A stretch of DNA of 23,272 nucleotides, from contig CAZBPC010000051.1 of the NCBI GenBank assembly GCA_964493715.1, positions 1 to 23,272 of the forward strand, read 5' to 3'. This document shows, piece after piece, positions 1,240 to 23,272 of the stretch. Every line of letters begins with the position of its first letter. The stretch's first letter is position 1. A model generated the notes under the pieces. It did no database searches and was not told the DNA's origin. It worked only from the letters and a program-made list of their open reading frames with translations. This stretch comes from an uncultured archaeon. GTDB taxonomy: Archaea > Asgardarchaeota > Lokiarchaeia > Sigyniarchaeales > SOKP01. A program made the position numbers and the translations under genes.

Positions 1240-1292
1240 TTCAAATCTGACCTCTAGCTTCTTTTATATTATCTTAAACAATAATTCAAAGT

Positions 1293-1508: not shown

Positions 1509-1534
1509 TTTTATCACGTTTTTCTCAATGCAAA

Positions 1535-3448: not shown

Positions 3449-3644
3449 AATGTTAACTCTTAAAAAATTTTTTAATTTTTCAAAATATAAATATGATAAT
3501 AATAGATGTATTAAAAGTTACTTATAACACTTAAAGGACATTTCTTTATGGTTCAAGATATTTCATCTTTAGAGTAGTTCCTTCTCGCGGCATTATTATA
3601 AATTTTAAAAACCTCATAAGCAGAGAACTAAAATCTTTCAGTTA

Positions 3645-4379: not shown

Positions 4380-4592
4380 AAAATCACGTATTTTTTTTCT
4401 GACTAGTTTGTAACTATTGGATATATTCTAATTTTTGATCCATTCATTTTAAATCTTATTGGTTCCACGTATATGAGGATCAATTTACTGAAAATATACA
4501 TATTATGGTGACCTATTCAATAGATTAATTCTGTAATTTTTTTTTATATTGATTCTTTCTAAAAATAATGAATTTGTTAGAGGTAATTAGAT

Positions 4593-4985
4593 ATGCAAAA
4601 TAATAGATATGATAGAGGATGGGAAAAATTAAAAGAAATTGATGGTGAAGCTGGAGAGAAAATTATTGAAAGTCTTAAAGAAGTTGCTCCAGAATTCGGA
4701 AAGTTTATCATCGAATTTCCTTTTGGAGATATTTATTCTCGATCAGGATTAGATTTAAAATCACGAGAAATAGCTACTGTTGCAGCATTAACAGCCTTAG
4801 GACATGCTTTACCTCAGCTAAAGGTACATGTTCATGGAGCATTAAATGTGGGATGTAGTCGTAAAGAAGTGATTGAAGTTATCATTCAAATGGCTGTTTA
4901 CGCAGGTTTTCCAGCTGCTTTGAATGCCATATTTGCAACTAAAGAGGTTTTTGATGAACGGGATAAAAAAGGACTCGATAAATAA
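4593..4985 (+). CDS. Carboxymuconolactone decarboxylase (CMD) family protein
   Basis: FGDIYSRSGLDLKSREIATVAAL, QLKVHVHGALNVG, AVYAGFPAALNA; no AhpD CxxC; GAGGT SD upstream. Confidence 0.93.
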   Translation: MQNNRYDRGWEKLKEIDGEAGEKIIESLKEVAPEFGKFIIEFPFGDIYSRSGLDLKSREIATVAALTALGHALPQLKVHVHGALNVGCSRKEVIEVIIQMAVYAGFPAALNAIFATKEVFDERDKKGLDK

Positions 4986-5054
4986 ATCTATTTATTTTTT
5001 TTTATATTTTACTTAAATTTTTATTGAAATCAGACGCTGAATTTATCTTTGAAA

Positions 5055-6932: not shown

Positions 6933-7462
6933 TCATACACCTCCTCAGTTGCTTTTTCACCCAATAGTTTTCTTGCAATTTCATATGCAAGTTCCTTAGG
7001 AGTTTTTGTGGATGATTTTTCCGTTTCCGCGTCTTGACCCTCTAAAAGAATCAAAGTATCCCACTTACCTTCTTGACAAGCCGCTGTACATTTCGGTTTT
7101 CCACCACATAAATCGCAAATCACTATATAACCCTCTTGAGGATGGAGATGGGGTACACTTCCAGGACAGGCATTAATGCACGTTCCACATGCGGTACATT
7201 TCGATTTATCAGTGATTACGGCTCCTGTATGATCGTCTATTGATAGAGCTTCCTCGGGACACGCTTCAACGCACGGATAATCTTCACATTGAAAACAGAG
7301 ATGAGGTATTTCAACACCTGGAACAAACATGAAAACTCTAACCCTTGAAGCTTCCGGCCAAATTTTCCCTTCGTGATGTAGAGAACATGCAATCTCACAT
7401 CTTCTGCATCCGCTGCATTTTTCATAAATTCTTTTTATCCACAGATTATTTACATCTTCCAT
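6926..7462 (-). CDS. 4Fe-4S dicluster (DmsB/CooF-like) electron-transfer subunit
   Basis: CSGCRRCEIAC, CFQCEDYPCVEACP, CTACGTCINACP, CDLCGGKPKCTAAC; 7-nt overlap with the AOR start suggests translational coupling. Confidence 0.92.
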   Translation of the reverse strand: MEDVNNLWIKRIYEKCSGCRRCEIACSLHHEGKIWPEASRVRVFMFVPGVEIPHLCFQCEDYPCVEACPEEALSIDDHTGAVITDKSKCTACGTCINACPGSVPHLHPQEGYIVICDLCGGKPKCTAACQEGKWDTLILLEGQDAETEKSSTKTPKELAYEIARKLLGEKATEEVYEW

Positions 7463-7903
7463 ATCAATACCTGACTACTTTTAAATGACCATTTGTTATT
7501 AATTCTTTTCTTATTTTTTGTAAATTAATAAACGATGATAGAATTGCTAATTATTAAGCCAAACGCTTAAAGAATTAAAAAGGATAATCATTAACTCACT
7601 ACGGAAATACTTACAAACTCAAATAAAGTAAATCTAATGAAAAAAAATTAAGATCTTAATAATGAGGTTATATAAAGTATAAAAAAACTTTTTGTTAGTA
7701 ATTCCAAGTTTTTTGAGTTTTAATTTTAAGCTCATAAGTGAATCTCGAATTTCAGGAACATTTTTATCTTTCCACGTTAATAAGTGAATATTCATTATTT
7801 ACATAATTTAGTCATTCTATTAAAAATATACACTCCAAGGAATAATGAATCTTAAGCACTTTTGCCATAGAGTTTCTTTAATTTATCCTTGCAAATTTTG
7901 AAA

Positions 7904-8485
7904 TTACTTCTCCTTACTTTGTAAAGAGGTAGGTGCTTCTTTTTTTGGTCTTCCCAAATATCTCGGAGTAGTTTTTAGATATTGCTGATAAGCTTCACCA
8001 TATTTCTTCTTTAAGAAAGTTTCTTCAAGGATGACAGTCCAGTGAAAATAAGGTATAGTAATAATGAAATAAATTAAAAAAATGATGCTCCAGATTGATT
8101 CTGACCAACCCATTAGGGTTAAACCTAAATACAAGATTGTTGTACCTACATAAATTGGATTTCGTGAGTAATGATGAATTCTGGAAGTCGTAAGTCCTTT
8201 ATTATATGCAAATGAATGTAATGCTATCTCTCCAATAACCAAACCTACAATAAATATTGGGAATCCAATAAAAAATAACACCCCAAAATTAACGGGAACA
8301 AAAAAACTAATTGCTAACCCTCCAAATAGCCAGATCATTGCAATAACAATAATCTTTTTATCAGCAAATAAAAATTCGGGATCATCAAAAGGTTTTCCTC
8401 GTTTATGATTTGCCCATACTTGCGTAGAATATGCTATTATATAACTAATTCCATAAAAAATCCATAAATTATTGAGAATTGACAT
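7904..8485 (-). CDS. Isoprenylcysteine carboxyl methyltransferase / PEMT-like membrane protein (paralog 2)
   Basis: Multiple TM helices; LTTSRIHHYSRNPIYVG and EETFLKKKYGEAYQQYLKTTPRYL are Ste14/ICMT motifs. Confidence 0.88.
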   Translation of the reverse strand: MSILNNLWIFYGISYIIAYSTQVWANHKRGKPFDDPEFLFADKKIIVIAMIWLFGGLAISFFVPVNFGVLFFIGFPIFIVGLVIGEIALHSFAYNKGLTTSRIHHYSRNPIYVGTTILYLGLTLMGWSESIWSIIFLIYFIITIPYFHWTVILEETFLKKKYGEAYQQYLKTTPRYLGRPKKEAPTSLQSKEK

Positions 8486-8496
8486 AACAATTTCAC

Positions 8497-9051
8497 TTAA
8501 TTAGGTTCTTTTTTTCTTGATTTTCCTAGATATCTTGGTGTTTTTTCTAAATATTCTTTATAAGATTCACCATATTTCTTGGAAAGAAATTTTTCTTCGT
8601 TTAATACAACCCAATGAAGGTAAGGTATGGTTATTAGAAAGTAAATGAAAAAGATGATACTCCAAATCGATTCAGACCACCCCATTAAAGCTAATCCAAA
8701 ATAAAATATGACCCATCCCACATAATTTGGATTTCTTGAATATTGATGTATTTTTGATGTAACAAGTCCAGATTTCTGTGCAAAGCTGTAGAAAGTGAGT
8801 AAAACTATAATAAACCCTATTGCACCAAAGATTAATCCAATGTAAAAGAGGAGCACAAAATTTACGGGTACAAAAAGGCTAATAGCAAATCCTCCAAAGA
8901 TCCATATCAAGGAAAGCACAAAGCCAAACTTTTTACTCTTTAGAAATTCTGGGTCTTCAAATGGTTCTCCACGTTTTTTATTAGCCCAAATCTGAACAAT
9001 CATAGCAATACCATAACCGCTGACATAAACTACCCATAAATTTATTGACAC
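8497..9051 (-). CDS. ICMT/PEMT-like membrane methyltransferase (paralog 1, GTG start)
   Basis: LVTSKIHQYSRNPNYVG and EEKFLSKKYGESYKEYLEKTPRYL; collinear with the neighbouring paralog. Confidence 0.88.
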   Translation of the reverse strand: MSINLWVVYVSGYGIAMIVQIWANKKRGEPFEDPEFLKSKKFGFVLSLIWIFGGFAISLFVPVNFVLLFYIGLIFGAIGFIIVLLTFYSFAQKSGLVTSKIHQYSRNPNYVGWVIFYFGLALMGWSESIWSIIFFIYFLITIPYLHWVVLNEEKFLSKKYGESYKEYLEKTPRYLGKSRKKEPN

Positions 9052-9067
9052 CGTTCTATCACACTAA

Positions 9068-9100
9068 TTACAAGCTTTTTTTGTAAAGTAAATATTACAA
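9068..9100. promoter_or_regulatory. Candidate operator: TTACAA-N7-TTGTAA-N8-TTACAA
   Basis: Overlapping inverted hexamers 17-49 nt upstream of the 9051 start, between it and a TATA-like element at about 9114-9122. Confidence 0.35.
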
Positions 9101-9349
9101 TAAATTTAAGACATTATATAATTTAAAAAACTAATTCTTAATAAATATTAAAAAAATTAGCTATTTAAAGCTTTATTAAATTTGGGATGATAGGTTTTAA
9201 CGTGTTATTCAAAATCATTCCAATATTTCGATATTACTAGGGTTTATGGATCCATGTATCATTTTTTCTTTGATTTATTAAATTCTTTATCATTTATCAA
9301 GAAACAAGGGCACTAATTCATTTATCAAGCTTACCTTGGTTTTCTTAAT

Positions 9350-9460
9350 ATGCACCAAAGAGGTACATCGGTTTTAGGGATTATAGCCCTAAAAAGTGCA
9401 ATTGGAGATTATAGTTGGAGTGGAGCTATTAATACATTCTTTGACGTAGATCCTGTGAGT
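9350..9460 (+). pseudogene. Remnant of a beta-lactamase-family serine hydrolase C-terminus
   Basis: AIGDYSWSGAINTFFDVDP resembles the GxYxWxGAxxTxFxIDP motif of EstB/class C-like serine hydrolases; no SxxK N-terminal half nearby. Confidence 0.45.
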
Positions 9461-9473
9461 CATCCTTCTTCTT

Positions 9474-10328
9474 TCACGGAATCTCAACACCCGGGACTTC
9501 AACATGTAAAAATTCAATTCTCCCACTTGATCTTTTGCCCTCTAAATATTGACTAGTGCAAAGAAAAAGAGTTCTTCCATCATCTCCACCCAGAGCGCAA
9601 GCATAAACATTTGTACCTTTTACTTTAATAGTAGAAGTGATTTCACCTCCCTCCAAAACACGTAAGACTTCTGCTTTGGATGGATTTGCAACCCAGATGG
9701 CGCCTTCTTCATCAAGACATATCCCATCTGGTGTAAAATCTTTAATTTCCGCCCAAATTCTTCGATTTATTAGATTTCCTGAATTATCAATATCAAAGGC
9801 AGTCAACTTACTTCCAAAAGTTTCTGCTACAATAAAAGTTTTACAATCGGGAGTCACAATACATCCATTGGGAAAAATAAGATTTTCTGCAACTATTCTT
9901 ACATCCCCTTCTTTTGTTACCAGGATGATGCTTGTGGGTTCAGCTGGGGATTCAAGGGACTTAGTGCCCCAATTTCCTATGTAAGTTCGTTCATGGATAT
10001 CAGTTACGGAGTCATTGCAGTTATATTCTGTAAATTTGCTTAAATCCGCATGAATTTTCAATCCTTCAGGATCTAAACGCATTAGGAAACGTCTTTGCAT
10101 TGAGACTATAAGCATCTTACCATCATTCAAAAAACCCAATCCCGACGGGGAATCCTGCAATTCTACTACAATTTCTGATTTAGCTTTTTCATCAACGGCA
10201 ATGACTTTTCTTCCAATAAAATCTGAAAAGAACAACTTTCTGTTCCGCCAACGAGGGCTCTCTGGAAATTCAAGACCAGACAATAATATTTTAGTCTCCA
10301 TTGTCATATTTATCAATTTGTTGCTCAT
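9474..10328 (-). CDS. SMP-30/gluconolactonase/LRE family beta-propeller
   Basis: LEFPESPRW, NCND, LIFPNG, TPDGICLDEEGAIWVA, ACALGGDDGRTLF. Confidence 0.93.
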   Translation of the reverse strand: MSNKLINMTMETKILLSGLEFPESPRWRNRKLFFSDFIGRKVIAVDEKAKSEIVVELQDSPSGLGFLNDGKMLIVSMQRRFLMRLDPEGLKIHADLSKFTEYNCNDSVTDIHERTYIGNWGTKSLESPAEPTSIILVTKEGDVRIVAENLIFPNGCIVTPDCKTFIVAETFGSKLTAFDIDNSGNLINRRIWAEIKDFTPDGICLDEEGAIWVANPSKAEVLRVLEGGEITSTIKVKGTNVYACALGGDDGRTLFLCTSQYLEGKRSSGRIEFLHVEVPGVEIP

Positions 10329-10653
10329 TTTAATAAAGTTACCTTTTTTATATATTCACCAAAACACTATTGAAAAAACATTCATAAAATTTTCCCATTC
10401 CACGGCATCTCAATCCATGCGGAAGTATTATCTCTAATATTTTTTCTTCTGTAATTTTCTTGGTTAAAATGGACACAAGTTTAACCTAACAAAGCGGGAA
10501 TTAATTGTTATTGTATAAAGTTTTATTATTTCAAAAATTCTATTTATAATTAATTCTGGACGGATAAAAAAGAAATTAAAAGAAAGCATGATGTAAAGCT
10601 TGGTCAAGATGTATTAGAGACCAATAATAGTTATCCAATTGGAGTTATTCTAA

Positions 10654-12021
10654 TTGGAGATATTGGAGATGCTAGATAACATGATAGATGAAGATTATGA
10701 TATAGTGATTATTGGATCAGGTTTGGGGGGATTAACAGCAGCAAGTCTCCTCTCCTGTAAGGGATTTAATACTCTTGTAGTGGAGAGTAGAAGTCGTATA
10801 GGAGGGCGATTTTCCACTTTTGAGTATGAAGGTTTCAAATTACCCACTGGTGCGATTCTTATCCCAGATGGGTGGGTGGTAAAATTACTTGAGGAGATGG
10901 GAATCAGAACTGAAAATTTAAGACCAATAACACGAGTTTATTATAGAATTGATGGTGAAAGTTATGAAATCCCATCTGAAATAGGAGTACCAAAAGCACT
11001 TGATATAATAGATAAGCTTGAAAGAAAGGAAGCTGAAGAGAAGAAGCGCTCAACGAATCCTGTCGAATTAAGTAAGATTATGCGTGGTTATTATAAAAAA
11101 TTGCTGGGAATAAATCAAGAAGAAATTATAACTGTTCGAGATTGGCTTCTTCAATATACTGAGAATGAAAAAGTGCACGATGCTTTTGATACACTCTGTA
11201 CAGGATTGATGATGGCTCATTCTTGGGAGCTACCTGTCTCAAAATTTTTCCTCTTCCAAGAAATGAGTAAATTTTACATATCACCTGACGGAAACCTCAA
11301 CATAGCACAAGAACTTGCTAAAGTAGTTGAGAAAAATGGTGCTGTATGGACTAATTCCCCAGCAAGGAAAATAATTGTCAAAGAGGGAAAAGTTACAAGT
11401 GTAATTGTTGAAAAAGCAGGAAAAGAAATTGAAATAAGATGTAAGATGGTTATTAGTAATACAGGAGTTAAATCGACAGTAAATCTAGCAGGAAAAGAAA
11501 ATTTTGATAAGGAATATCTTGAACAGGTGCGTATTAAACTCCGACCAAGTCCATGTTTATTGGTTCTAGTCGCAAGTGATAAGCCTCTGTGCTTGGAAGG
11601 AATACATGATGGATTGGAAATAATAATGGGATCGCGAAGAATTAAGACTGTTATCCCTATTAGTAATATCTGTCCCGAACTTGTCCCATCGGGGCAACAT
11701 CTTATGTACACTTCAGCTAAGTCCGAATCGACCCTCCATCCTATGGATATAAAATACGAAATGCAACAAGTTAAAAGTGATATTAAAGCGTTTTTTCCAG
11801 ATTTCAAAAAGCACGGTCGGATTTTAAAAATGAGAGCATGCGGTATTATCAATGAATGGCCTGAAGGTCGAACTTGGCTTGGTTATGGTATGCCATTAGA
11901 GACGCCGATATCTAATCTATTTAACGTAGGAGATTCATGCATCGCTCCAGGTCTTATAGGAACTCCTGGTTCTGTAGAAAGTGGTTACCGGGTGGTTGAT
12001 AGTGTTGAAAAATTATTATAA
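10654..12021 (+). CDS. FAD-dependent oxidoreductase, phytoene dehydrogenase-like (true start probably ATG 10669 or 10681)
   Basis: YDIVIIGSGLGGLTAA...VVE...IGGRF...GFKLPTGA Rossmann and GG motifs; C-terminal TPISNLFNVGD...G..GSVESG. Confidence 0.88.
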   Translation: MEILEMLDNMIDEDYDIVIIGSGLGGLTAASLLSCKGFNTLVVESRSRIGGRFSTFEYEGFKLPTGAILIPDGWVVKLLEEMGIRTENLRPITRVYYRIDGESYEIPSEIGVPKALDIIDKLERKEAEEKKRSTNPVELSKIMRGYYKKLLGINQEEIITVRDWLLQYTENEKVHDAFDTLCTGLMMAHSWELPVSKFFLFQEMSKFYISPDGNLNIAQELAKVVEKNGAVWTNSPARKIIVKEGKVTSVIVEKAGKEIEIRCKMVISNTGVKSTVNLAGKENFDKEYLEQVRIKLRPSPCLLVLVASDKPLCLEGIHDGLEIIMGSRRIKTVIPISNICPELVPSGQHLMYTSAKSESTLHPMDIKYEMQQVKSDIKAFFPDFKKHGRILKMRACGIINEWPEGRTWLGYGMPLETPISNLFNVGDSCIAPGLIGTPGSVESGYRVVDSVEKLL

Positions 12022-12052
12022 TCCAATTTGAAGAAATAAAAAATTTGATTTT

Positions 12053-13177
12053 ATGGACATTAGTGATCTTAAGATAGGAAGAGAGGGAACATTTATACCC
12101 CCATTTAAAAGTAATATCGCCACAGTTAAAAGTTATGAAAATGAGGGGTATGATTCCATATTTTTTGCCGATCATATCTTAAATTGGATACCGGAATCTA
12201 TATGGACTCCAGATATTACTGATCTTGCTAATATTTATCCCAGTCCCCATCTAATATATGATGTTTTTACTATGATGACTGTTGCTGCCTTAAACACAAA
12301 AAAGATTTACCTCGGAACAGGAGTAACCGAAGCTTTTAGAAGGAATCCCGCGGTACTTGCGCAAACCTTTCTGACTTTAGATGAATTATCCAGAGGGAGA
12401 TCAATATTGGGGATAGGAGCGGGTGAAAAAGCAAATACCGTTCCCTACGGAATTAAATGGGAAAAGCCTGTAAGTAGATTAGAAGAAGCCGTTATAATTA
12501 TTAGAAAATTATGGGAAAATGATGAAGAAATAAATTATGATGGAAATATTTGGAAGTTAGAAAATGCCCTCCTCAGATTAAATCCTTTTAAAAAAGGAAA
12601 ATTTCCCCCAGTATGGATTGCCGCTCGTGGTAACAGAATGCTAGATATAACCAGCAGATTAGGTGATGGTTGGTTACCTATATTTTTAAAACCAGAAGTT
12701 TATAAAGAAAAACTAAGGATTCTTCGAAAATACACGCTGAAAGCAGGTAGAAATGTGGATGAGATTACTCCTGCAGTTATTTTGGGAGTTATCACTGATG
12801 AGAATAGTGAAGAAGTCGATAAAATGCTCAAAAATCCAATTACAAAAAATAATTTAATGACGTTATATCATGAAGATTTCAAGCCATATGGATTATCACA
12901 TCCTCTTGGAGAAAATATTGATGGGACTTTAGAATTTATTCCTACACATTACGATAAAGAGTCATTGCTGCAAACAATTGAAAAGATCCCTGATAAAATG
13001 TGTCATGATTTTTACTTAAATGGTAGTCCTGATGAAATTATTGGTCAAATTGAAAATTATGGCAAAGTTGGTGCAAAACATATAATTCTATTTAATGTTT
13101 CAATATTATGTGGTCTTAAATATATTCCAAGTTCAAATAAATGCATGAAAAAAATAATTACATATTTTAAAAACTAA
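12053..13177 (+). CDS. LLM-class (probably F420-dependent) oxidoreductase, phthiodiolone-ketoreductase-like
   Basis: GYDSIFFADH, LGTGVTEAFRRNPAVLAQTFLTLD, ILGIGAGEKANTVPYG, PPVWIAARGNRML...GDGWLP. Confidence 0.88.
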   Translation: MDISDLKIGREGTFIPPFKSNIATVKSYENEGYDSIFFADHILNWIPESIWTPDITDLANIYPSPHLIYDVFTMMTVAALNTKKIYLGTGVTEAFRRNPAVLAQTFLTLDELSRGRSILGIGAGEKANTVPYGIKWEKPVSRLEEAVIIIRKLWENDEEINYDGNIWKLENALLRLNPFKKGKFPPVWIAARGNRMLDITSRLGDGWLPIFLKPEVYKEKLRILRKYTLKAGRNVDEITPAVILGVITDENSEEVDKMLKNPITKNNLMTLYHEDFKPYGLSHPLGENIDGTLEFIPTHYDKESLLQTIEKIPDKMCHDFYLNGSPDEIIGQIENYGKVGAKHIILFNVSILCGLKYIPSSNKCMKKIITYFKN

Positions 13178-13235
13178 TGAATTAGGCGTTCTTCTCCAAA
13201 ACATTCTATAAAAATTAAAAAATTATTAGATAAAT

Positions 13236-14165
13236 ATGCCAATAACCTCTCAAAAAATTGATGTTCACCATCACATTGTACCTAAAGAATACCTTGCCGC
13301 TTTAGCCTCAATAGGCATTAAAAATGCTGTTGGTGAACCTTTCCCACAGTGGGATATTGAAAATACTATTGCTTTTATGGATAGACAAGGGATAGCTATA
13401 GCAATTAATTCAATCTCTGCACCAGGTATTTATTTTGGAGATAATGATTTTACTCAAAAATTAGCACGCAAATGTAATGAAATCTCTGCTCGTATTGTGA
13501 ATGAATACCCAAATCGCTTTGGTACGTTTGCTATTTTACCCCTACCAGATATAGAGGCATCCATAGTTGAATTGGAGTATGCTCTAGATACCTTAAAACT
13601 TGATGGGGTGGTTTTACTTTCAAATTTTGGGGGTATATACATCGGAGATGCCCATTATGATGATCTTTTTTATGAGCTAAATCGCAGGAAAGCTGTGGTT
13701 TTTGTACATCCAAGCGTACCTCCTTTAGATACATTACCCATGATAATAAAACCCGCAATTTTAGAATTCGTTTTTGATACCACAAGAGCAATTGTTAATC
13801 TTATACATAGAGGAGCGACAAAACGCTTTCCGGATATAAGTTTTATTTTTTCGCATGGAGGAGGAACTGTTCCCTTTATAACGTGGAGAATTACTTTTGG
13901 AAATAATAAGATCATTAATCAGTTAAAACGCTTTTATTATGATACAGCAGTGTCAGCAACCCCCTATACATTAAGTTCCCTGCTGAGTTTAGTGGAACCA
14001 ACGCAAGTATTATATGGGAGTGATTATCCATTTTTGCCCGAAAGGGTTGTAAAACTAATGAATGAAGGTCTTCAAAATTATGATTTTGAAAGAGAAACCC
14101 TCACGAAAATTGTCCAGCAAAATGCAGTTACTTTATTTCCAAGGTTTAAAGAAATTATATTTTAA
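13236..14165 (+). CDS. Amidohydrolase_2 family (6-methylsalicylate decarboxylase/ACMSD-like)
   Basis: IDVHHH, VFVHP, FSHGGGTVPF, YYDTA and LYGSDYPF metal-binding motifs. Confidence 0.9.
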   Translation: MPITSQKIDVHHHIVPKEYLAALASIGIKNAVGEPFPQWDIENTIAFMDRQGIAIAINSISAPGIYFGDNDFTQKLARKCNEISARIVNEYPNRFGTFAILPLPDIEASIVELEYALDTLKLDGVVLLSNFGGIYIGDAHYDDLFYELNRRKAVVFVHPSVPPLDTLPMIIKPAILEFVFDTTRAIVNLIHRGATKRFPDISFIFSHGGGTVPFITWRITFGNNKIINQLKRFYYDTAVSATPYTLSSLLSLVEPTQVLYGSDYPFLPERVVKLMNEGLQNYDFERETLTKIVQQNAVTLFPRFKEIIF

Positions 14166-14355
14166 AAAATTTTATTTTTCGATTCTCCAAAACCTTTCAA
14201 TCTTGTTATGTTTTCTTACATTTTTTCAAGAGAATTTGCATTGAAATCTGAGGATAAGTTACTAAGTTATTCTGGTATAAAATTCAATAAATTTTAATGA
14301 GCCTTCGAACAAATAGAATATTTATACGTAAAATTGAAAAGAAATTTTATTAGAT

Positions 14356-15231
14356 TTATTCTCTAATCAGTCTCTGATATTTAACTATATTGACAATTGT
14401 CAATATACTTGAGATAAGGATTATAACTCCTCTTCCTATTTCAATGAGATATTGTCTTAAGTGATGCATATAGTAGAAAATTAGTACATCATTGTGTGTT
14501 CCACTAATATAAGATACAACTATTGGCATAAAAGCACAATTTCTAAGAATATAAAATAATACTGAAGCAAATATACCAATTAGTGCAAAAATGAAAATAA
14601 TTTTGATGTAATTTTCATGATATATAAAAGAAAATATTTTGGGAAAATGGGCGTCTGTATTCTGAAGATGATACAATCTTATCAAAATGAAGAGTGAGAA
14701 GATCAGAACAATCGAGCATGTAATTAAGTTAAAAATTGCTTGAGGAATGCTACTAACAAATATATAATAATCCATAGTTGAGCCTACTGCTGTATAAATG
14801 AAAGTATTTACCCATTGTAACAAATGAAAAGTATACATGATAATTCCAAACAGAGAAGTTCCTAACAAAATTAATCTTTTTTCATCATCTATGTGAAAAG
14901 CAAATAATTTATTTTTCTCATCTGAACGAAAAAATTTATTCTGATATAAATATATTTTAATGAGTACGTATAAACACAAGATTACTATTACCAGTTGACC
15001 CAATACAAAAAATCCAATTAATGGGCCATAAGTAAATAATAATTCAATGAATTGTGAAGGAGAGAGTGATCCTGTGAAATAAATGAAATACATCAAATAA
15101 TCTGAAGTTCTGAATAAACCGATTGGTAATCCAAATAGAGCAATGATAAATAGGTAGAATCGATATTTTTCATCTAAGTTGATTCCAAAAATCCTAAAAT
15201 TATCTATAAATGGAAAATTGTCTTTATCCAT
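14356..15231 (-). CDS. Multi-pass membrane protein built from three internal repeats
   Basis: About 6 TM segments; repeats begin at RIFG (aa 13), KLFA (aa 108) and KIFS (aa 198). Confidence 0.8.
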   Translation of the reverse strand: MDKDNFPFIDNFRIFGINLDEKYRFYLFIIALFGLPIGLFRTSDYLMYFIYFTGSLSPSQFIELLFTYGPLIGFFVLGQLVIVILCLYVLIKIYLYQNKFFRSDEKNKLFAFHIDDEKRLILLGTSLFGIIMYTFHLLQWVNTFIYTAVGSTMDYYIFVSSIPQAIFNLITCSIVLIFSLFILIRLYHLQNTDAHFPKIFSFIYHENYIKIIFIFALIGIFASVLFYILRNCAFMPIVVSYISGTHNDVLIFYYMHHLRQYLIEIGRGVIILISSILTIVNIVKYQRLIRE

Positions 15232-15659
15232 AATGATTAATAAATTATTTTTTATGAATATAAATATTATTAATCTCCTCTAGTGTTAATTCCCACATCA
15301 ATATCTATATCATGTATTAATTGAAAAAGTGATTCTACTACCACGCCCGCTTAATCGAACAATGCAATACTAGTATTTTAATCTTGTCCTAATTTTTTTT
15401 GCTCCTATATTAGTGTAGTTTTCACTAAAATTCCTTCAAAATCTGACTCTGAATTTACCTTTCCATCCAATTTTCACAGAAAATTGACACAAAATTTAAA
15501 AAGACTCGAATCTTGTGTCTCTTAAAATGGAGGAAAATACAAATATAGCATGATCCTTGAATTTGAGTCTTCTGAATTTAAATCTTTTTAAATTGTCATA
15601 AAATCTAAATATATCATTGACTATGTTAATCCTTATATAATAAAAAAATGTGATTACAT

Positions 15660-16175
15660 ATGGCTAGTGGAAAAGGAATCGCGTATGCGGGATTAATTTT
15701 AGGATTAATTGGTGCTGGTTTAGGAGGATATGTATTTTTCGATTATACTATAGCTCCAATGTTAGGTTTGACTGAAAATCCTACTGAAGTAACTGAAGTT
15801 AATTCTTATTATGCTGAAAAATATAGTGCTACATTATCCTCGACGGGTTCTTATTTACCTCTTCCTGAGGTTAAAGTCTCATTTGAAACGACCAAAACTG
15901 TCAGTCTGCATATATTATATACTTCTTATGTTAGGATCATAACTTCTTTAGGTAGTAGCGTATTTATAAATATACGTCTAAATAGTACTACAATAACAGA
16001 TGATTATTACATAGAGAAGTTAAATGTTGCGCCTCAAGAACGATTTGCTGTCAACATGCAAAGCTATAACGCCGCTCTTCCTGCAGGAAGTTATAATGTA
16101 ACAGTATGGGCAATAGTGGATGCCACATCAACTATTTTTTACATGAATTCGCTTTACGTGCAACTAAATACCTAA
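15660..16175 (+). CDS. N-terminally anchored surface protein with a beta-rich domain
   Basis: Gly-rich TM GIAYAGLILGLIGAGLGGYVFF; beta-strand-rich C-domain ending LPAGSYNVTVW; NxT sequons. Confidence 0.8.
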   Translation: MASGKGIAYAGLILGLIGAGLGGYVFFDYTIAPMLGLTENPTEVTEVNSYYAEKYSATLSSTGSYLPLPEVKVSFETTKTVSLHILYTSYVRIITSLGSSVFINIRLNSTTITDDYYIEKLNVAPQERFAVNMQSYNAALPAGSYNVTVWAIVDATSTIFYMNSLYVQLNT

Positions 16176-16213
16176 TAACTTCTTCTTCTCTTTTTTTTAT
16201 TCTCTCTTTTTTA
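16176..16213 (+). terminator. Pyrimidine/oligo-T terminator
   Basis: T8 and T6 runs directly after the stop of 15660..16175. Confidence 0.45.
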
Positions 16214-16367
16214 GACTTATTATGATTTACCCATTCGATCATTTTTGATTGAGAAATTTGATTAGTTAAATTGAATTTTTCAAATGATCACGAAATGATG
16301 ATGGGATGGAATTCCAACCTTTGAATGAAAAAGCGTAATTCTTAAATTTTTCAGTATATTTTGATAG

Positions 16368-16438: not shown

Positions 16439-18133
16439 ATGTGTGCACAACTTGGCGGACAACCGATTTTCATAATGAAAGAGGGAACTCAAAGAACCCG
16501 TGGTAAAGATGCAATGGAAAATAACATTGCTGCTGCGAAAGTAATTGCTGAGGCAGTCCGAACATCACTAGGTCCAATGGGCATGGATAAAATGCTCGTC
16601 GATCAATTCGGCGATGTAGTCATCACCAACGATGGTGCTACAATTTTAAAAGAAATCGACGTGCAACATCCTGCTGCAAAAATGATGGTAGAAGTCGCGA
16701 AAACTCAGGATTCTGAAGTTGGAGATGGTACCACGACCAGCGTGATTATCGCAGGAGAATTATTAAAGCGGGCGGAAAAGCTCTTACAACAGAAAATTCA
16801 TCCAACAGTGATTTCTGAAGGATTTAGAAAAGCCGCTGATAAAGCAGTCGAGATCTTGGAAGAAATTTCCATTAAAAGTGGTATTGATGACTTGGAGGGC
16901 TTAAAAAATTGCGCAATGACTTGCATGTCGAGCAAGATTGTCTCTGAATCAAAAGCCATGCTTGCTGATATTTGCATTCAAGCAATTAAAGCTATAGCCG
17001 AAAAAGGCGATAATGGTAAATGGACCGCTGACATCGAGAAAGTTCAGATTCAAAAGAAAGAAGGCGAAAGCATTGATGATACCAAATTAATCAAGGGCAT
17101 CATCCTTGACAAGGAAGTTGTAAGTCCAGGAATGCCTAAATCCATAAAAGATGCTAAAATTCTATTATTACAAAGCGCTATCGAGATCGAAAAAACAGAA
17201 TTCGACGCAAAACTCCAAATCACGAGCCCAGACCAAATCCAACAATTCTTGGATGAAGAAGAACACATGCTTCGAACCATGGTTGAAAAGATCGTGAACT
17301 CTGGAGCAAATGTTCTAGTTTGTCAAAAAGGAATTGATGATTTAGCTCAACATTTCTTATCCAAAGCTGGCGTGATGGCAGTCAGGAGAGTCAAGAAATC
17401 CGATATCGAAAAGCTTTCCAAAGCAACCGGTGGAATGGTTTATACGAACCTTGATGATATTACCACTGCTAAATTAGGATACGCTGGATTGGTCGAAGAA
17501 CGAAAGATCATGAATGATAGCTGGATTTTCATCGAAGAATGCAAGGAACCAAAATCAGTCGTGATTTTAATTCGCGGTGGAACTGAATTAATCATCGATG
17601 AAGTCGAAAGAGCAATTCACGATACTCTTTGCGTCATTCGAGATGTGGTTCAAGATGAAAAAGTCGTTGGAGGCGGTGGCGCTCCAGAAATCGAAACTGC
17701 CATCCGATTGCGAAAATATGCCTCAACCTTAGGCGGTCGTGAGCAATTAGCCGTCGAAGTTTTTGCTGACAGCCTCGATATCATCCCAAAAACACTCGCA
17801 GAAAATTCAGGACTCGACCAAATTGACATCCTAATGCAATTACGAGCCGCACATCAAGCAGGCAACAAATTTGCTGGATATGATATGGATGCTGGTAAAG
17901 TCATAAATAACATGATGGATAGTGGTGTAGTAGAACCAACAATTGTCAAGATTCAAGCCATCAAGAGCTCATCAGAAGCCGCTAGCATGATTCTCAGAAT
18001 CGATGATGTCATCGCAGGCGCCAAATCTGCCGGACCCCCAGGTGGAATGCCTCCTGGTATGCCGCCGGGGATGGGAGGCATGGGTGGTGGTATGCCTGGT
18101 GGTATGGGTGGCTATCCTGGTATGGATTACTAA
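16439..18133 (+). CDS. ths: Thermosome (group II chaperonin) subunit
   Basis: [43 protein letters not shown]-rich tail; alpha/beta assignment cannot be made by eye. Confidence 0.98.
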
Positions 18134-18198
18134 AATCTTATATCTTTTTTATTTATTTTTTCTTTCTATTATTCTTTTAATTTTTTAGAGATATTTTG
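18097..18198 (+). repeat. Direct repeat copy 1: thermosome 3' end plus oligo-T terminator
   Basis: 18145-18198 is identical (54/54) to 20758-20811; 18097-18133 matches 20714-20750 at 32/37. Confidence 0.95.
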
Positions 18199-18447
18199 AG
18201 AACTTTCACATTCAGGAATTTCAATCTCGCTTAATAATTTTTTAAATTCTTCCTTGGATTCTTTTTAATTGACAAATTATTTTAGAACAATTAATTCAAT
18301 AAAAGATTGGATTGCAGAACAAAAAGAGTTACACGAAAAGTTGGGATTTTAATCAATAGGATATTTTATTACTTTTTCTATTCTTCAATTTTTTTCTATT
18401 AAATTAAAAAAAAGTTAAAATTTGAAAGTTGTTTACGTTCAATTCTT

Positions 18448-18777
18448 CTATTCTGGTGGTTTTTGTCCTATCGACGAATAAGCTTCTTCTACGGTCGACC
18501 AAACTTCTATTGTATATTCAAAGCCTGCAATAGACATGGCAAATAAATTAGCGATAGACTGCATGCGAAAGTAGGCTTCCTCAAGTTTTCCTTTATTTAC
18601 ATGAAGAATAGATATGGTTTTTGCACCTTCCTTCGTTGATTTAATAGCATTTCCAGGTGTTAAATCTACACCTAATGACTCATCAGGGGGGAATTTTTTA
18701 TTTGATTCGATAACTTTTTTTATTACTTCACCTGATTTGTCGCTAGGCCATTTTGTGAAAGTAAATAAATATGGCAT
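18448..18777 (-). CDS. Small hypothetical protein (DUF3303/GYD-like)
   Basis: Clean ORF with GAGGT SD on the minus strand; MPY..WP..K..EV.KK...FPPDESLG...IEVW.TVEEA pattern recalled from expanded archaeal small-protein families. Confidence 0.7.
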   Translation of the reverse strand: MPYLFTFTKWPSDKSGEVIKKVIESNKKFPPDESLGVDLTPGNAIKSTKEGAKTISILHVNKGKLEEAYFRMQSIANLFAMSIAGFEYTIEVWSTVEEAYSSIGQKPPE

Positions 18778-19316
18778 ATTTTATACCTCTTTTCTATTAC
18801 TCAATTTAAATGAATTTTTGAGTTAGTTTTTAAATCAGATTTCGTTGTGATTAATAATTAGTTTAGAAGGTATTTAAAATTTATACGTACTTGTCAGAAA
18901 ATTGCATGGTCTATAAAAACTTCATAAAACTAGTTATTGTTTTACATTTTTTCTTTCTATTTTTCTAGTAATTTTTTACACATATTTTGGTAGAGCATAC
19001 ATCCAAAATTATCGATTCCATTAAATTATCACTCGGAAAAATATTTTCTCCCTATTCGTAGTTTAAAGCGAGTAAAAATGATATCTTAAAAGAATTCGGC
19101 ACGTTCAAATTTGGAGAAATCAGCAATTTATTATTAAGTGATTTTGAAAGAGCTCTAAATCTATTTTTTTATACTATTTAGATTATTTATTTTTTCCAAA
19201 TCTAAACAATTTTTCTAAATAAAGTATTCTATAAGCAAGAAACTTTAGATAACTTTCAAAATTGCTTTTTCGCTTTCTTTCGTGTTGCAAGACCTTTAAA
19301 AAAGATGATATAACTT

Positions 19317-19871
19317 TTAATCAGGGAAAACTTCGATAGATTCTCTAGGTTTTATTCTATGTATTAGAAAAAGCCAAAGTATAACTCCAACAACAAGTAA
19401 GATGGCAAGAATAGGTGTTATGTAAAGGAATGGATCCTCATTATCAAACAAAAGCGAATAATGGAAAAGGGTTGATTCTTCATTCGATTCGTCGTTAATA
19501 AACACAATATTCCAATAATCCTCTTGATGCACTTCATAACGCCCAGATGCACTATTTTGCGGACCATCAGACAAATAAAATGCAGCATAACCCATTCCAT
19601 GTTGAAATAAATCAAAATAATCATCGTCCATTAAAAAACCTGTTACGTGCACATTTGGATTATCACACTGAAATGAAAAAACAATAACACTTATCACATA
19701 ATGATGAACATGCACATATTCCCCCGGATCAAGTTGAACAACATCAGATTCTCCATTAATCGTTATAGATGCGGGATAATGATCGTAAAATGCCGTTGTT
19801 CTCACCATATTAGTAAATATGACAAGAATTAAAATAAAATTGAGAATTACGCTACATATTTTAATTTTCAT
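19317..19871 (-). CDS. Type I membrane protein: signal peptide, small beta-sandwich, C-terminal TM
   Basis: Hydrophobic N-terminus; SASGRYEVHQEDYWNIVFIN; TM ITPILAILLVVGVILWLFLI followed by HRIKPR. Confidence 0.8.
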   Translation of the reverse strand: MKIKICSVILNFILILVIFTNMVRTTAFYDHYPASITINGESDVVQLDPGEYVHVHHYVISVIVFSFQCDNPNVHVTGFLMDDDYFDLFQHGMGYAAFYLSDGPQNSASGRYEVHQEDYWNIVFINDESNEESTLFHYSLLFDNEDPFLYITPILAILLVVGVILWLFLIHRIKPRESIEVFPD

Positions 19872-19894
19872 TTGATTATCTTCTCCTTCTGATA

Positions 19895-20551
19895 CTAATT
19901 CCCTCTAAAATACATTAATATTAATTGAACGAAATACGATGAAAAAAAGAATATAAAGATAAAAGTTCCGCTCATAATTATCCCGGTATTCCTAAACAGT
20001 GGTTGTTTATTTAAAACTCCATGAAAAATCAGAAAAGTATAGGCGGCCAAAATTATACCAAAAATCATATATCTCAAGAACAAAAATAGGACGATATTTT
20101 CTAGATATGAGGAAGGGTCTGTTAATCTCATCAAGGTAGAGGTAAAAAATGAAATTAAATGATAAGCAAGTAGTAAAGTACCGGCAAGAAGTAAATAAAA
20201 CTTGTATCGATCCTTATTGAAATAGCCGAAAATTAAGAGAGATAAAGCAGGAATAAATTGTGTAGGAAGAGAAATAAGTAATGATAGCCATATAAAGTAG
20301 AGATTAAGAATGAGCATTTCCTCTGCAGAGATATTTCTTGCTTCAACTCCGGGAATAAAGAAAAAAGCAAGGGACACACCTAACGCGATTAAAGAAGATA
20401 TGAGGAGTAATCTCGGTAATTTAAACTCTTCTTTATAACGCCAAATTGTTGAATAAATCAGGAGATTATATAAAATGATAGGAAAACTCGAAAAAAGTTG
20501 TAAGAAAAAAGTTTCTGGGTCTAAAAAAGGAAATACGAGATTAATATTCAT
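19895..20551 (-). CDS. Hypothetical multi-pass (~6 TM) membrane protein
   Basis: 218-aa hydrophobic ORF, 23 nt upstream of 19317..19871 with GGAG SD (probable operon). Confidence 0.78.
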   Translation of the reverse strand: MNINLVFPFLDPETFFLQLFSSFPIILYNLLIYSTIWRYKEEFKLPRLLLISSLIALGVSLAFFFIPGVEARNISAEEMLILNLYFIWLSLLISLPTQFIPALSLLIFGYFNKDRYKFYLLLAGTLLLAYHLISFFTSTLMRLTDPSSYLENIVLFLFLRYMIFGIILAAYTFLIFHGVLNKQPLFRNTGIIMSGTFIFIFFFSSYFVQLILMYFRGN

Positions 20552-20713
20552 AATATTTCATTTATAATGTGTTAAATCATTGGATAAACTGAATTTCTTT
20601 CAAATTATGTTTAAGTTGATGAGATTTAAAAATTTTATTCTTTACATAAATATTTATAAAAAAAAGAATCGATACTTTGGGGATTAAAGACATAACATCT
20701 CTTAAATTTCAGG

Positions 20714-20811
20714 TGGTGGTATGGGCGGTTATCCTGACATGGATTATTAACTTCTTATTTTTTATTTATTTTTTCTTTCTATTATTCTTTTAATTTTTTA
20801 GAGATATTTTG
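20714..20811 (+). repeat. Direct repeat copy 2: orphan thermosome 3' end (GGMGGYPDMDY*) plus terminator
   Basis: Aligns to 18097-18198; in-frame TAA at 20703-20705 upstream, so it is not part of a longer ORF. Confidence 0.95.
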
Positions 20812-20831
20812 GCAGAGCCCACATCTGCCAA
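20809..20831. other. GC-rich hairpin TTGGCAGA-N7-TCTGCCAA
   Basis: Perfect 8-bp inverted repeat at the distal edge of repeat copy 2. Confidence 0.7.
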
Positions 20832-21007
20832 TAATAGATCACTAAATATTCTTGATACTATTCATTGTTTGTAGGTCGCTTGTTTCGAAATTTTTCGGTT
20901 CTTTTCTTTCTCATTTCTTTGGATTTTTCAAGAAACCGTTCAAATTCTTCCTTTCCGGCTTTTACTGCATCTAAATCTTCTTTGGATACCTCTCCAAGTA
21001 CATTTTT

Positions 21008-21772
21008 TCATGTTGAAGAGATATCTTTTCCTTCCTTTTCACCCATTCGTCTCAGGAAATCTTTAAACTCAGGAGGTTCATTATCAGGACCGACGAACGT
21101 GAGATGATATGGCCAACCGTGTTCATTCCTCTCCGATTCAGCCATTTTTGAGACAATGAATTTCGTTCGGGTAGTCACTTTTTTACCCGTCCAGAGCCAG
21201 ATTCTAGAATATTTCGGATCTTTAAACGGGTAGATTTCATCATCATCCAACACTTCAGATAGTTTTATACCTGGACTTAATTTGATCTCTTTGAAATCTT
21301 GAAACAAGGAATCAAAGTAATGTGAAGCTAATTCTTTAGGAAACTCTTTTGCTTCAAGGAACTCTATCACGTGACCATTAACAATGGTAATGAGGTCGTT
21401 AAGTCCAAAAAAGTAAATCAGGAAGGATGGTAAAGTGGGAAGTCCGTCAGGGATTTGAATGCTAATTAAGTTAGGACTTATTATTTCATGAAGGTATTTC
21501 CTATCTATCGTAATTACTTTTAAGTTATCTTGCTTTAATATTGACTTCACTTGTATTGCCGCATTTTGAATATCCATTACAAGTTCTTTTGGGAGTGGCA
21601 ACAATTTTGTAAACCATCCAAGAAGCTCTTCAGGACGTTCCTTTATCGTCCCACTAAAAACATGGGTATCTATTACGTCATTTTTCTTGAGAAGCCTTAC
21701 AGCCATTTTCTCATTTATCAATCCAAATTGGAGATGATGGGATGTGCCTAAAATGTTAAATTCGGAACTCAT
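21008..21772 (-). CDS. Protein with a C-terminal Asgard gelsolin-like domain; frame continues past the TGA to a TAG at 20858
   Basis: aa ~147-241: LSEVLDDDEIYPFKDPKYSRIWLWTGKKVTTRTKF...VGPDNEPPEFKDFL fits the gelsolin pattern L-x2-D...IWxWxG...K...V..gxE.xxF. Confidence 0.72.
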   Translation of the reverse strand: MSSEFNILGTSHHLQFGLINEKMAVRLLKKNDVIDTHVFSGTIKERPEELLGWFTKLLPLPKELVMDIQNAAIQVKSILKQDNLKVITIDRKYLHEIISPNLISIQIPDGLPTLPSFLIYFFGLNDLITIVNGHVIEFLEAKEFPKELASHYFDSLFQDFKEIKLSPGIKLSEVLDDDEIYPFKDPKYSRIWLWTGKKVTTRTKFIVSKMAESERNEHGWPYHLTFVGPDNEPPEFKDFLRRMGEKEGKDISST

Positions 21773-21929
21773 TTCTAAGATATAATTAGTATTTCAAGTA
21801 ATAAATATACTCATAATTGCGTAATGAAATACGACTGAAAAAATAATTGATATTTGTTAGTAATATTAATATACTAAATAAAAAATATTTAAATTAATCC
21901 AAGTATCATAAAATAGAGGGTGTAAATCA

Positions 21930-22391
21930 ATGAGAAATTACAAAAAAATCTGGATTTTGTTATTTTTTCTTACTTGTTGTTTTTTAATTCCAAATACTAA
22001 AGGAATTGAGAGAATAGAAGAGACTTTTTATTGCCCGAAAAATATTCATACCCCTATTATTGAAAATCTTAATATAGAAAAGGACGAAGTAATTACTTGG
22101 GATTTTACCACTTTCAATAGTTCCTTCGAAGCGATATTAGGCTTATGGATTAGTACATTTACGTTTGTTGTTGCTTTATGTGTTCAAGAAACAAACGGTA
22201 GGGGAGAATATAAATTTACTCAAACGGGAGATTATCGTATTACTGCAGGTAATTTTGGTATAAATGATGGTTATATTCATATAGTTTTAGAAAACAAAAA
22301 TGGAATATCGAGTTATCCGCTTTTCATAATATTTGGAATAATTGGAACGACTATTATAATTAAGTCCATAAAAGTAAAGAGATCAAATTAA
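21930..22391 (+). CDS. Secreted/anchored beta-sandwich protein with a Loki-CTERM-like tail
   Basis: Signal peptide; tail GISSYPLFIIFGIIGTTIIIKSIKVKR resembles the IPGY + TM + basic Loki-CTERM pattern. Confidence 0.75.
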   Translation: MRNYKKIWILLFFLTCCFLIPNTKGIERIEETFYCPKNIHTPIIENLNIEKDEVITWDFTTFNSSFEAILGLWISTFTFVVALCVQETNGRGEYKFTQTGDYRITAGNFGINDGYIHIVLENKNGISSYPLFIIFGIIGTTIIIKSIKVKRSN

Positions 22392-22394
22392 ACA

Positions 22395-23102
22395 ATGGAA
22401 AATCTCAAGAATTTATTAGATAGAGATGAAAATGTTCTCTGGAAACGAGAAGTTATACGAGATATAGTTCCTGATAAAAAGAAAATTAAAATAATTAAAG
22501 CGTCAAAAATAATTTTTCCCATTTTCATTGGTGTCATTATTCTCTTGAATCTCTTGGTTCTAATGACTACATCATCTCCATTGATGGGTAGTATTTTTCT
22601 AATTTTTTCCCCTTTGATGTTGTTGTGTCCTGTCTTAAATTTTCGGATGCAGGTGCATAATTCATTTAATCAACAAATTGAATTGCATGAAATCATGAGA
22701 AAGTATTATCCGGATGAAATTTTAAGTAAAGTCCCCTTTCTTGAAGTAATTACTAATAAACATTTTATTATGACAGAACCTTTTAGTCATGAGATATATC
22801 CTCTCTGGCTTGGTGTTGATATTGCACATGAATATGAACCAAGAAATGAATTTATCTTCTATAATTTAGATAAATTAACAGATATATGTAAGTATATCAA
22901 GCCAAAAAAAGATAGATATGAAATTGGGTTATACTTTGATTTGAAGGAGCATAATCTTATTGGAGATGATGCTCCTCATTATTGGTTTGAGGGATTAACT
23001 AATTTACAGTATAAAAACATCCTAAGTGCCTTACTAAAGACAACTCCTGATGTACCTATCAGTTTTTTATTTAAAAACCAAGAGGATTTTGAACATCTGT
23101 AA
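22395..23102 (+). CDS. Membrane protein with 2 TM helices and a probable PH-like domain
   Basis: LDRDENVLW N-terminal motif, two TM helices, then VITNKHFIM resembling the (Y)xxTNxRxx strand of prokaryotic PH domains; 3 nt from the upstream gene. Confidence 0.65.
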   Translation: MENLKNLLDRDENVLWKREVIRDIVPDKKKIKIIKASKIIFPIFIGVIILLNLLVLMTTSSPLMGSIFLIFSPLMLLCPVLNFRMQVHNSFNQQIELHEIMRKYYPDEILSKVPFLEVITNKHFIMTEPFSHEIYPLWLGVDIAHEYEPRNEFIFYNLDKLTDICKYIKPKKDRYEIGLYFDLKEHNLIGDDAPHYWFEGLTNLQYKNILSALLKTTPDVPISFLFKNQEDFEHL

Positions 23103-23192
23103 TATCTTTTGAAGATAATCAATCAAAATTCATCTTTACCATCATAATTCATCATCATATAATTAAAATACATTAAAAAGGGGATTTTTTTT

Positions 23193-23272
23193 TTAAATCT
23201 CTAAAATTCCATCCCATGCTTTCCTTTCTTTTTCGAATAACGCATTAGCGATTTTGATTTCATTTCCTAATA
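23193..23272 (-). CDS. 3' end of a gene entering from the right edge (...LGNEIKIANALFEKERKAWDGILEI*)
   Basis: Frame open from the window end to TAA at 23195-23193; protein-like composition. Confidence 0.55.
   Translation of the reverse strand, partial: LGNEIKIANALFEKERKAWDGILEI

Follow-up and report, generated by a model that had tools for sequence, protein, structure and literature searches.

Integrative elements, together with integrase-less elements that are mobilised in cis, accrete in tandem at the 3' ends of housekeeping genes, as is the case for ICESt-type elements at fda in streptococci. Tycheposon-type islands of Prochlorococcus reportedly form arrays at tRNA genes, in which tandem islets that carry only cargo are separated by partial copies of the tRNA gene's 3' end, and bacterial pangenomes possess integrase-free hotspots between core genes, where transferred genes and defence islands accumulate. 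Chromosomal integrons are reported also in Archaea (PMC9668308), and for the arrays of displaced C-terminal ends at Rhs, contact-dependent inhibition (CDI) and type VI secretion system (T6SS) effector-immunity loci an origin by homology-facilitated illegitimate recombination has been proposed (Kirchberger et al. 2017, PMC5361080). Here we report an array of comparable architecture from an uncultured archaeon of the Asgard lineage Sigyniarchaeales, situated behind the gene for its thermosome on contig CAZBPC010000051.1. The window is this entire contig of 23,272 bases, and it belongs to a metagenome-assembled genome (assembly G000: 160 contigs, 3.68 Mb, 31% G+C, estimated complete). Within it, the 3' end of the thermosome gene recurs downstream with other genes in between, and we favour, with moderate confidence, the interpretation that this Asgard genus gains genes at a hotspot directly after the thermosome stop, through a homology-anchored, integrase-free mode of insertion that displaces the resident 3' end.

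The repeated end of the thermosome gene

The thermosome gene (16439..18133, plus strand) encodes a protein of 564 amino acids (aa) with a Gly/Met/Pro-rich tail and is the conserved anchor of the hotspot. A Cpn60_TCP1 match (PF00118, Pfam, E 5.1e-184) spans residues 36-526 and identifies the product as a group II chaperonin, and orthologues in 17 genomes of the same genus share 83-89% aa identity with it. The gene's final 11 sense codons, together with the stop (18097-18133), have a second copy at 20714-20750 in which 32/37 nucleotides (nt) are identical, both copies reading as a thermosome tail with its stop (the second as GGMGGYPDMDY), and the flank at 18145-18198 recurs at 20758-20811 with 54/54 identical. 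An earlier note on this DNA had given the same identities, which our re-measurement reproduces, and a spacing of 2,613 nt, which applies to the flank; the coding parts lie 2617 nt apart, the 4-nt length difference falling directly after the stop. The five differences between the tails comprise three silent third-base changes and two in a single Gly-to-Asp codon, and because the stop is also kept, the second tail looks like a second working allele and not like a product of decay. On the other side of the identical block the two copies have diverged completely.

A BLASTN search of the whole assembly aligned the two copies at 89.2% identity over 102 nt with one gap (E 1e-32), and the best match to the first copy off this contig was a T-rich stretch of 64 nt at 79.7% (E 2.8e-8). 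The unit is not a dispersed genome-wide repeat, a possibility that the earlier note had raised; this search, the genomes of the genus and the search of species genomes for its core (below) all limit it to the thermosome locus. A genome-wide scan of G000 returned 19 local direct repeats with a low-complexity filter switched on, a filter that hid the thermosome unit too, so that the uniqueness of the locus cannot be read from that number.

Comparison with relatives of the same genus shows that the unit is made up of the thermosome tail and a T-rich core, followed by the 3'-terminal part of a small open reading frame (ORF) in convergent orientation, here named orfX. The description of the repeated flank as an untranslated region holds only in part, since on the minus strand it encodes the end of orfX, which reads KEELKWAINGIDIVGCGLSQNISKKLKEK before its stop, the last codons sitting within the T-rich core. 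The orfX frame runs without a stop for at least 76 codons in 8 genomes, where an in-frame TGA is conserved ahead of it. When 1.84 billion proteins were searched with a profile, 56 relatives were recovered, all of 27-202 aa except for one repetitive protein of 1798 aa, and the intact forms (58-107 aa) begin with methionine; orfX is therefore a small gene and not the stump of an integrase, and these short relatives rule out the leftover of a split integrase of the SSV type. Nothing above noise was found for the orfX family in Pfam, NCBIfam or PADLOC. A tRNA or other known RNA as the insertion site was likewise rejected, as ARAGORN detected no tRNA in the window or in the loci of 8 relatives, and no Rfam family reached its gathering score in 62 kb. 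Single-strand folding gave z +0.8 for both the canonical unit and the first copy in the window, which amounts to no stable fold; a local hairpin appears in the displaced copy alone, formed at its truncation point.

Three copies lie in the window, all on the plus strand. Copy A (18097..18337; nhmmer match 18087-18337, model positions 2-249, 79 bits) comprises the working tail of the thermosome gene (18097-18133), then a spacer and the T-rich core with the identical block, and lastly a strongly diverged orfX-like 3' end, which reads KEEFKKLLSEIEIPECESSQNISKKLKE followed by two stops on the minus strand. Copy C (20714..20831) consists of the displaced tail and stop, then the T-rich core (20758-20811), and an orfX end of canonical sequence that breaks off at 20825, and it is 95% identical over 65 nt to the unit of the close relative L085. 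Homology to copy A begins at the join between cargo DNA and displaced tail (20713..20714), with AAATTTCAG on the cargo side and GTGGTGGTATGG on the tail side, and we read the join as the scar of a non-homologous event. Copy B (18929..19024; model positions 46-145, 41.6 bits) is partial and older, with core and orfX end and no thermosome tail; it aligns with A at 88.6% identity over 44 nt, and with C at 81.8% over 77 nt. The earlier note described a single islet of three genes between the outer copies, and while its three minus-strand ORFs stand, it had overlooked copy B, which separates cargo gene 1 from cargo genes 2 and 3 and divides the islet into two packets.

Arrays and empty forms in relatives

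The unit is tied to one place in the genome. Among 41 genomes of the genus, DNA matches to it at E<=1e-11 number 35, all of them on 20 contigs; the thermosome gene, complete or as a 3' piece, is present on 19 of these, and the remaining one breaks off near the unit. Translations resembling orfX occur in 21/41 of these genomes, with 31/32 matches on those same contigs, and in 0/5 genomes from four other genera of the order, an empty answer that is weak evidence. The exact 31-nt core is present in 14 stretches among 185,579 species genomes (one genome per species); 13 of these have archaeal titles, 12 of them Asgard lineages. One record with the exact Asgard T-rich core, L154, is titled as a bacterial (Nanopelagicaceae) genome bin, and its contig is probably mis-binned or mislabelled. 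The earlier note had suggested searching Asgard viruses and other mobile elements for the unit, and IMG/VR returned 0 exact core matches and 0 orfX relatives. Several relatives' contigs end at or just past the thermosome stop, as is expected at a repeat.

A model of the unit matches 176 times, with 44 copies at the 25 genome loci and 132 at the 80 metagenome loci; every one lies on the thermosome strand and, wherever the gene is on the contig, downstream of it. Arrays, in which copies lie more than 300 nt apart, were found at 9/25 genome loci and 31/80 metagenome loci and consist of 2-5 copies, the largest at a genome locus being that of G020 (5 copies over 20 kb). The genes between the copies differ from genome to genome, and empty forms exist: locus L088 displays the plain state, in which the thermosome gene is followed by a single unit and then an esterase gene, and a contig of run X4 (below) shows another. 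These alternative cargoes and empty sites, both of which the earlier note had suggested looking for, bear out its proposal that the thermosome 3' end is a recurrent insertion point. As in displacement arrays, the 3' end of the anchor gene recurs in same-strand orphans downstream, and the distal junctions are variable. In G010, a complete thermosome gene lies on contig C129 (L010), and a second 3' piece of 157 aa (~80% aa identity) is found with a unit array at the end of C133 (L057); this piece either derives from another strain binned with the first or is a long 3' end that was displaced.

The far edge of the array can also be placed. From the TCAGTT at 23059 onwards (23059..23272, minus strand) the sequence is 84% identical over 215 nt to the DNA immediately 5' of orfX in L088, a region that takes in the last part of a carboxylesterase gene assigned by a Pfam match; the whole array of the window consequently extends from the thermosome stop codon to 23058, and the contig ends 214 nt beyond that edge. 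Past the array, most relatives share a block comprising a gene for a 741-747-aa protein, a histone-deacetylase-like gene, a profilin gene and ABC transporter genes, which begins 2.7-26 kb beyond the thermosome stop. One TnpB-like gene is present in this conserved block of G016, outside the array.

We also compared the window with contigs of four other public runs (Logan; including X3, X4, X6 and X7), drawing no conclusion from the parts without contig cover in X6 and X7. These contigs reproduce 18198-20751 and 20788-21500 with 0 differences, and the join between cargo and tail C is crossed with 0 differences by X3 record 7 (20632-20751) and X7 record 30 (20697-20886), the latter spanning all of copy C. 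In X3 and X4 the body of the thermosome gene has a depth of ~15 vs 4-6 for the islet, the tail-A piece and the islet are covered to much the same depth (3.3-6), and an X4 contig of depth 15 joins 18088 directly to 20715. X3 and X4 contigs also leave the window at 20825 and continue into canonical orfX. The depths and the X4 contig show a commoner, islet-free strain, in which the thermosome gene runs into a copy-C-like tail, living beside the strain of the window. This co-occurring strain is nearly identical to the window up to ~18000 and increasingly different after 18004, in a stretch that is a length-variable Gly/Met repeat.

Junctions, likeness to known arrays and the route of insertion

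The thermosome tail had been interpreted in the earlier note as an attachment (att) site of integrative elements, and this reading finds no support in the proteins or the junctions. We scanned 219 proteins from ~105 loci (21 from the window, 104 representatives of 304 ORFs from the 25 genome loci, and 94 representatives of the 138 unmatched among 318 ORFs from the 80 metagenome loci) for PF00589 and PF00239, the families of tyrosine and serine recombinases, integrases and resolvases, and obtained no match. In the whole of G000, PF00589 is represented by a single gene, away from this contig (C33:13736-14257), and PF00239 by none. Nor do the 103 displaced copies share one crossover point. Their left ends are scattered over model positions 30-140 (~100 nt), from inside the thermosome tail (copy C of the window retaining 37 nt of coding sequence, L125 ~15 nt and L114 8 nt) through the spacer and across the T-rich core, and their right ends vary just as widely. 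Each type of cargo mostly keeps its own junction across genomes, implying that cargo is inherited or moved as blocks, and yet the point at which the serine-dehydratase cargo meets the unit is not the same in G014 and G015 as in G020. Moreover, relative to plain L088, the packet of 153-aa and 235-aa genes in L085 (95% DNA identity over 1.4 kb) is flanked by a direct repeat of just 10 nt, TCAGTTATTT, and repeat length thus varies with the event at this locus. On the reverse strand of L085 this repeat stands at about 245-260 and 2130-2145, and the resident flank supplies the last 14 codons of the 235-aa gene.

The copies within an array are not fresh local duplicates either. Compared with the proximal copy in the same array, displaced copies show 63-95% identity, and 33/41 are closer to the proximal copy of another locus (a count favoured by taking the best of many and by some duplicate loci), an example being the displaced copy of G015, at 63.5% to its own proximal copy vs 90.5% to that of G014.

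Each of the systems introduced above shares part of this pattern. In the Rhs, CDI and T6SS arrays, a conserved upstream gene likewise serves as homology anchor, incoming DNA brings a new 3' end with its genes, the old 3' end is kept downstream, and same-strand orphan strings arise with no integrase and with junctions that are not at one site. The present arrays differ from these in their displaced piece, which has no toxin tip or immunity gene and consists of 0-12 chaperonin-tail codons plus a terminator and the end of orfX, the small convergent ORF, as well as in a cargo unrelated to the anchor gene, an Asgard host and an anchor crossover that is presumed. With ICESt-type accretion they have in common the 3' end of a conserved protein gene, its restoration, the displacement of the old end, repeated sites between packets and packets that lack an integrase, as some do there; but accretion of that type involves a fixed core and, in some elements, a cognate tyrosine integrase, whereas no integrase occurs at the ~105 loci and the ends are scattered. 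Tycheposon arrays resemble them in being cargo-only islets beside a conserved gene, separated by partial copies of its 3' end, and differ in that the window and the 8 relatives' loci have no tRNA gene and no tyrosine recombinase was found. As in integrons, the array of packets is one-sided, with a repeated element between packets and the newest packet next to the fixed point; in contrast to integrons, there is no intI, the unit has no hairpin-forming imperfect palindrome (z +0.8), and packets hold one to many genes on either strand. Finally, the variable segment between conserved genes, rich in defence-type genes and accessory enzymes, is reminiscent of pangenome hotspots, from which it differs by being punctuated with a repeated unit that includes the core gene's own end. 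With no integrase, no fixed core and no folded site, the locus falls outside the definitions of integrons and of tandem accretion, and is instead a known kind of recombination hotspot in a new place, the 3' end of the Asgard thermosome gene. The supposition of the earlier note that this had not been described from Asgard archaea agrees with our full-text literature search, which found no description of a thermosome-linked hotspot; the words "thermosome" and "chaperonin" are absent from the Asgard mobile-element papers PMC8813620 and PMC11529989, whose supplements lay outside the search.

We infer a homology anchor in the thermosome gene, a non-homologous join and the order of events as follows. 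Incoming chromosomal DNA of a relative, in which that relative's thermosome tail, a T-rich core acting as terminator and an orfX end precede the cargo, would pair by homology with the resident thermosome 3' region, and its far end would be attached at the resident stop or directly after it, either non-homologously or via a few shared bases. The tail and terminator of the newcomer would then serve the thermosome gene, and the resident tail, terminator and orfX end would be shifted downstream as an orphan copy. Repeated events would yield arrays of packets separated by same-strand orphan units, the newest adjoining the gene, and homologous recombination between existing repeats could delete, circularise or swap packets. 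The window may accordingly preserve at least two such steps (packets 18199-18928 and 19025-20713) on top of older cargo (20826-23058). These arrays show that a duplicated gene end is by itself no proof of an att site.

Several observations weigh against this route. The thermosome genes of 21 species representatives are 76-93% identical at the DNA level, with no clear mosaic in the 3' part, and exchange anchored in a gene so diverged between species would need strains far closer to each other. In 76/91 genome pairs the T-rich core surpasses the thermosome gene in conservation, a figure inflated by low complexity; this could mean that the core is a functional site, and the block of 54/54 identical positions, set in copies that have otherwise diverged, could be the core of a recombinase target. 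Additionally, no Logan contig spans the copy A core (18139-18178), for which the link rests on the original assembly and on elimination. Our confidence in the route is moderate because the crossover at the anchor is a presumed one, the events are frequent and tightly placed, and the T-rich core is better conserved than the gene.

The unit could alternatively be a true attachment site, at which integrase-less packets of cargo (cis-mobilisable or decayed elements) are accreted in tandem by a recombinase acting in trans, from a helper element or from the host. A site-specific enzyme would explain the tight focus of events; same-strand repeats bracket each packet, with the newest beside the gene and the gene end restored, in the pattern of tandem accretion; filled and empty forms coexist; and the T-rich core is well conserved and found in nearly all copies, with its 54/54 block in the window. 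However, the 219 proteins include no integrase or resolvase, G000 has the lone PF00589 gene and no PF00239, and neither unit nor orfX was found on IMG/VR contigs. The copy ends are scattered and one cargo has differing junctions, although later erosion could blur a fixed site. The earlier note had also suggested a search for excision junctions or a circle, and the contigs of the four runs contain no such back-joint, bearing in mind that contigs cannot show rare forms. We therefore consider mobilisation in trans unlikely, if still worth keeping in view, and the site-specific att reading itself unsupported.

The trigger for recombination may instead be a nuclease. Very frequent among the array cargo are a GIY-YIG protein and a HerA-like ATPase. 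The former has 663-688 aa, an N-terminal GIY-YIG domain (Pfam E 1.5e-8) and a match to TIGR01453, "group I intron endonuclease", that lies below threshold (E 2e-11, 44 bits, cut-off 56). Its gene adjoins full-length orfX and is divergently transcribed from it in G020 (L047:1349-5342), G052, G004 and many metagenome loci, it is followed by the HerA-like ATPase gene (PADLOC mad8/HerA matches) in G020 and G052, and no other cargo cluster is matched as often in the metagenome loci (25/318 ORFs). By these domain matches the two may be either a defence pair or a homing-type nuclease. In the latter case a free-standing endonuclease might cut the thermosome 3' flank where the gene is absent, and repair of the break would copy the nuclease gene together with cargo, which would account for the tight focus; an Asgard element has been proposed to use a homing endonuclease comparably (PMC8813620). 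Against this stand the absence of such a gene from the window (whose contig stops shortly past the array edge) and from many arrays, and the length of the protein, far greater than that of known homing enzymes, so that with HerA it may simply be a defence system. We regard a nuclease trigger as rather improbable. We give no more credence to a bolder variant, in which the T-rich core and orfX end would be the dedicated recombination site of a genus-specific gene-capture platform with integron-like logic (cassettes placed behind a fixed, strongly expressed gene), run by neither tyrosine nor serine recombinases and perhaps by the GIY-YIG/HerA pair or the small orfX protein, the conserved TGA/TCAGTT boundary forming its second edge.

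Tandem duplication in place of the thermosome end and its flank, followed by divergence and unrelated insertions, would suit repeats that are direct and local, and the 54-nt identical block would fit a recent duplication or conversion. Nevertheless, 5/37 positions differ to one side of that block and the sequences to its other side have diverged entirely, the orfX part of copy A is far more diverged from the canonical form than that of copy C, most displaced copies match other genomes better, and cargo differs between genomes, all of which render this origin highly improbable. An assembly artefact, in which the flanks of two strains were joined through the shared 54-nt core, might be suspected given a metagenome-assembled source in 160 contigs, at least two strains sharing the thermosome gene in the same samples and an unbridged copy A core, but is scarcely credible, since contigs from other samples reproduce the islet without differences and cross the join between cargo and tail C, tail-A and islet depths agree, an islet-free strain occurs alongside, and the same architecture is seen in many independent assemblies.

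Cargo, surroundings and biological meaning

Cargo gene 1 of the window (18448..18777, minus strand, 109 aa) belongs to a small Asgard-only family that recurs as cargo in other arrays; its cluster, cl14, has 6 members across genome loci, and in a protein atlas its clusters (at 0.95-0.96) are from Promethearchaeota and have no Pfam family. Cargo genes 2 (19317..19871, 184 aa) and 3 (19895..20551, 218 aa), also on the minus strand, are singleton clusters among the 304 ORFs of the genome loci; the former has hydrophobic stretches at both ends, and the latter is mostly hydrophobic and may thus encode a membrane protein. Nothing above noise was found for the three proteins in Pfam, NCBIfam or PADLOC.

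Beyond copy C lies further cargo on the minus strand (20858..21772), with a 254-aa ORF (21008-21772) that is missing at the corresponding place in L085. It has no Pfam match at E up to 1, and its nearest atlas clusters score 0.85-0.89, under the 0.9 line, with PF00626 in 13-28% of members at 0.88-0.89, so that a "gelsolin-domain" label can be taken as a lead only. The TGA that terminates it (21008-21010) is followed by 49 further codons open in frame. At orfX, the TGA preceding the 76-codon frame (e.g. L011:1024-1026) is kept in 8/8 genomes and replaced by Trp in two metagenome homologues (P0005, P0007). These TGAs could reflect read-through or recoding, or merely a conserved boundary. The last cargo in the window is a plus-strand pair of 153 and 235 aa (21930..23102), for which no family was found; L085 has the pair (98% and 92% aa identity) and L088 is without it.

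In the arrays of relatives, the cargo includes enzymes (serine dehydratase, SMP-30/gluconolactonase-like enzyme, amidohydrolase, alpha/beta hydrolases) and small GTPases. Defence-type cargo comprises SIR2-TPR, DUF4062-TPR, TIR, Schlafen/AlbA_2, HEPN AbiV, AAA_15/21 with HNH, PemK and DNA methylase genes.

A comparison of synteny around the relatives' thermosome genes found that the neighbour genes of the window are not shared, save for distant homologues of the 109-aa protein, and the regions on both sides of the gene are variable. The upstream neighbours usual in 9 relatives, an L38e-like gene (64-67 aa) and a gene for 169-179 aa, lie ~0.5 kb before the thermosome gene; their counterparts in the window are at 696-890 and 142-657, respectively, and are separated from it by ~15 kb of accessory genes (1240-16330), a block that no unit copy flanks. 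The block contains genes for an aldehyde:ferredoxin oxidoreductase, a ferredoxin, two PEMT-like proteins, an isochorismatase, a luciferase-like oxidoreductase and an amidohydrolase. The PEMT-like genes are tandem PEMT/DUF1295-like paralogues of 193 and 184 aa (7904-9051; 73-74% DNA identity over 208 and 68 nt, 572-nt spacing). At 1535-3448, a minus-strand ORF of 637 aa with repeat arrays of 15-nt period and no Pfam family probably encodes a low-complexity or coiled-coil protein. An SMP-30/gluconolactonase-like gene at 9474-10328 is 90.6% identical in DNA to a gene within the downstream array of metagenome locus L074 and clusters with array cargo of G002, G011 and G048; as it is upstream of the thermosome gene here and array cargo in relatives, cargo moves between both sides of the gene.

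Gene gain by Asgard archaea is central to ideas on the growth of their genomes and on the origin of eukaryotes, and few mechanisms of it are documented. The thermosome 3' end provides a concrete and repeatedly used entry point with a readable footprint, one that needs no integrase that was found. Its arrays record the order of acquisitions and contain numerous genes of defence type as well as accessory ones. As a specific marker, with 14 exact core matches among the 185,579 species genomes, the unit could serve to track strain-level gene flow in sediment populations.

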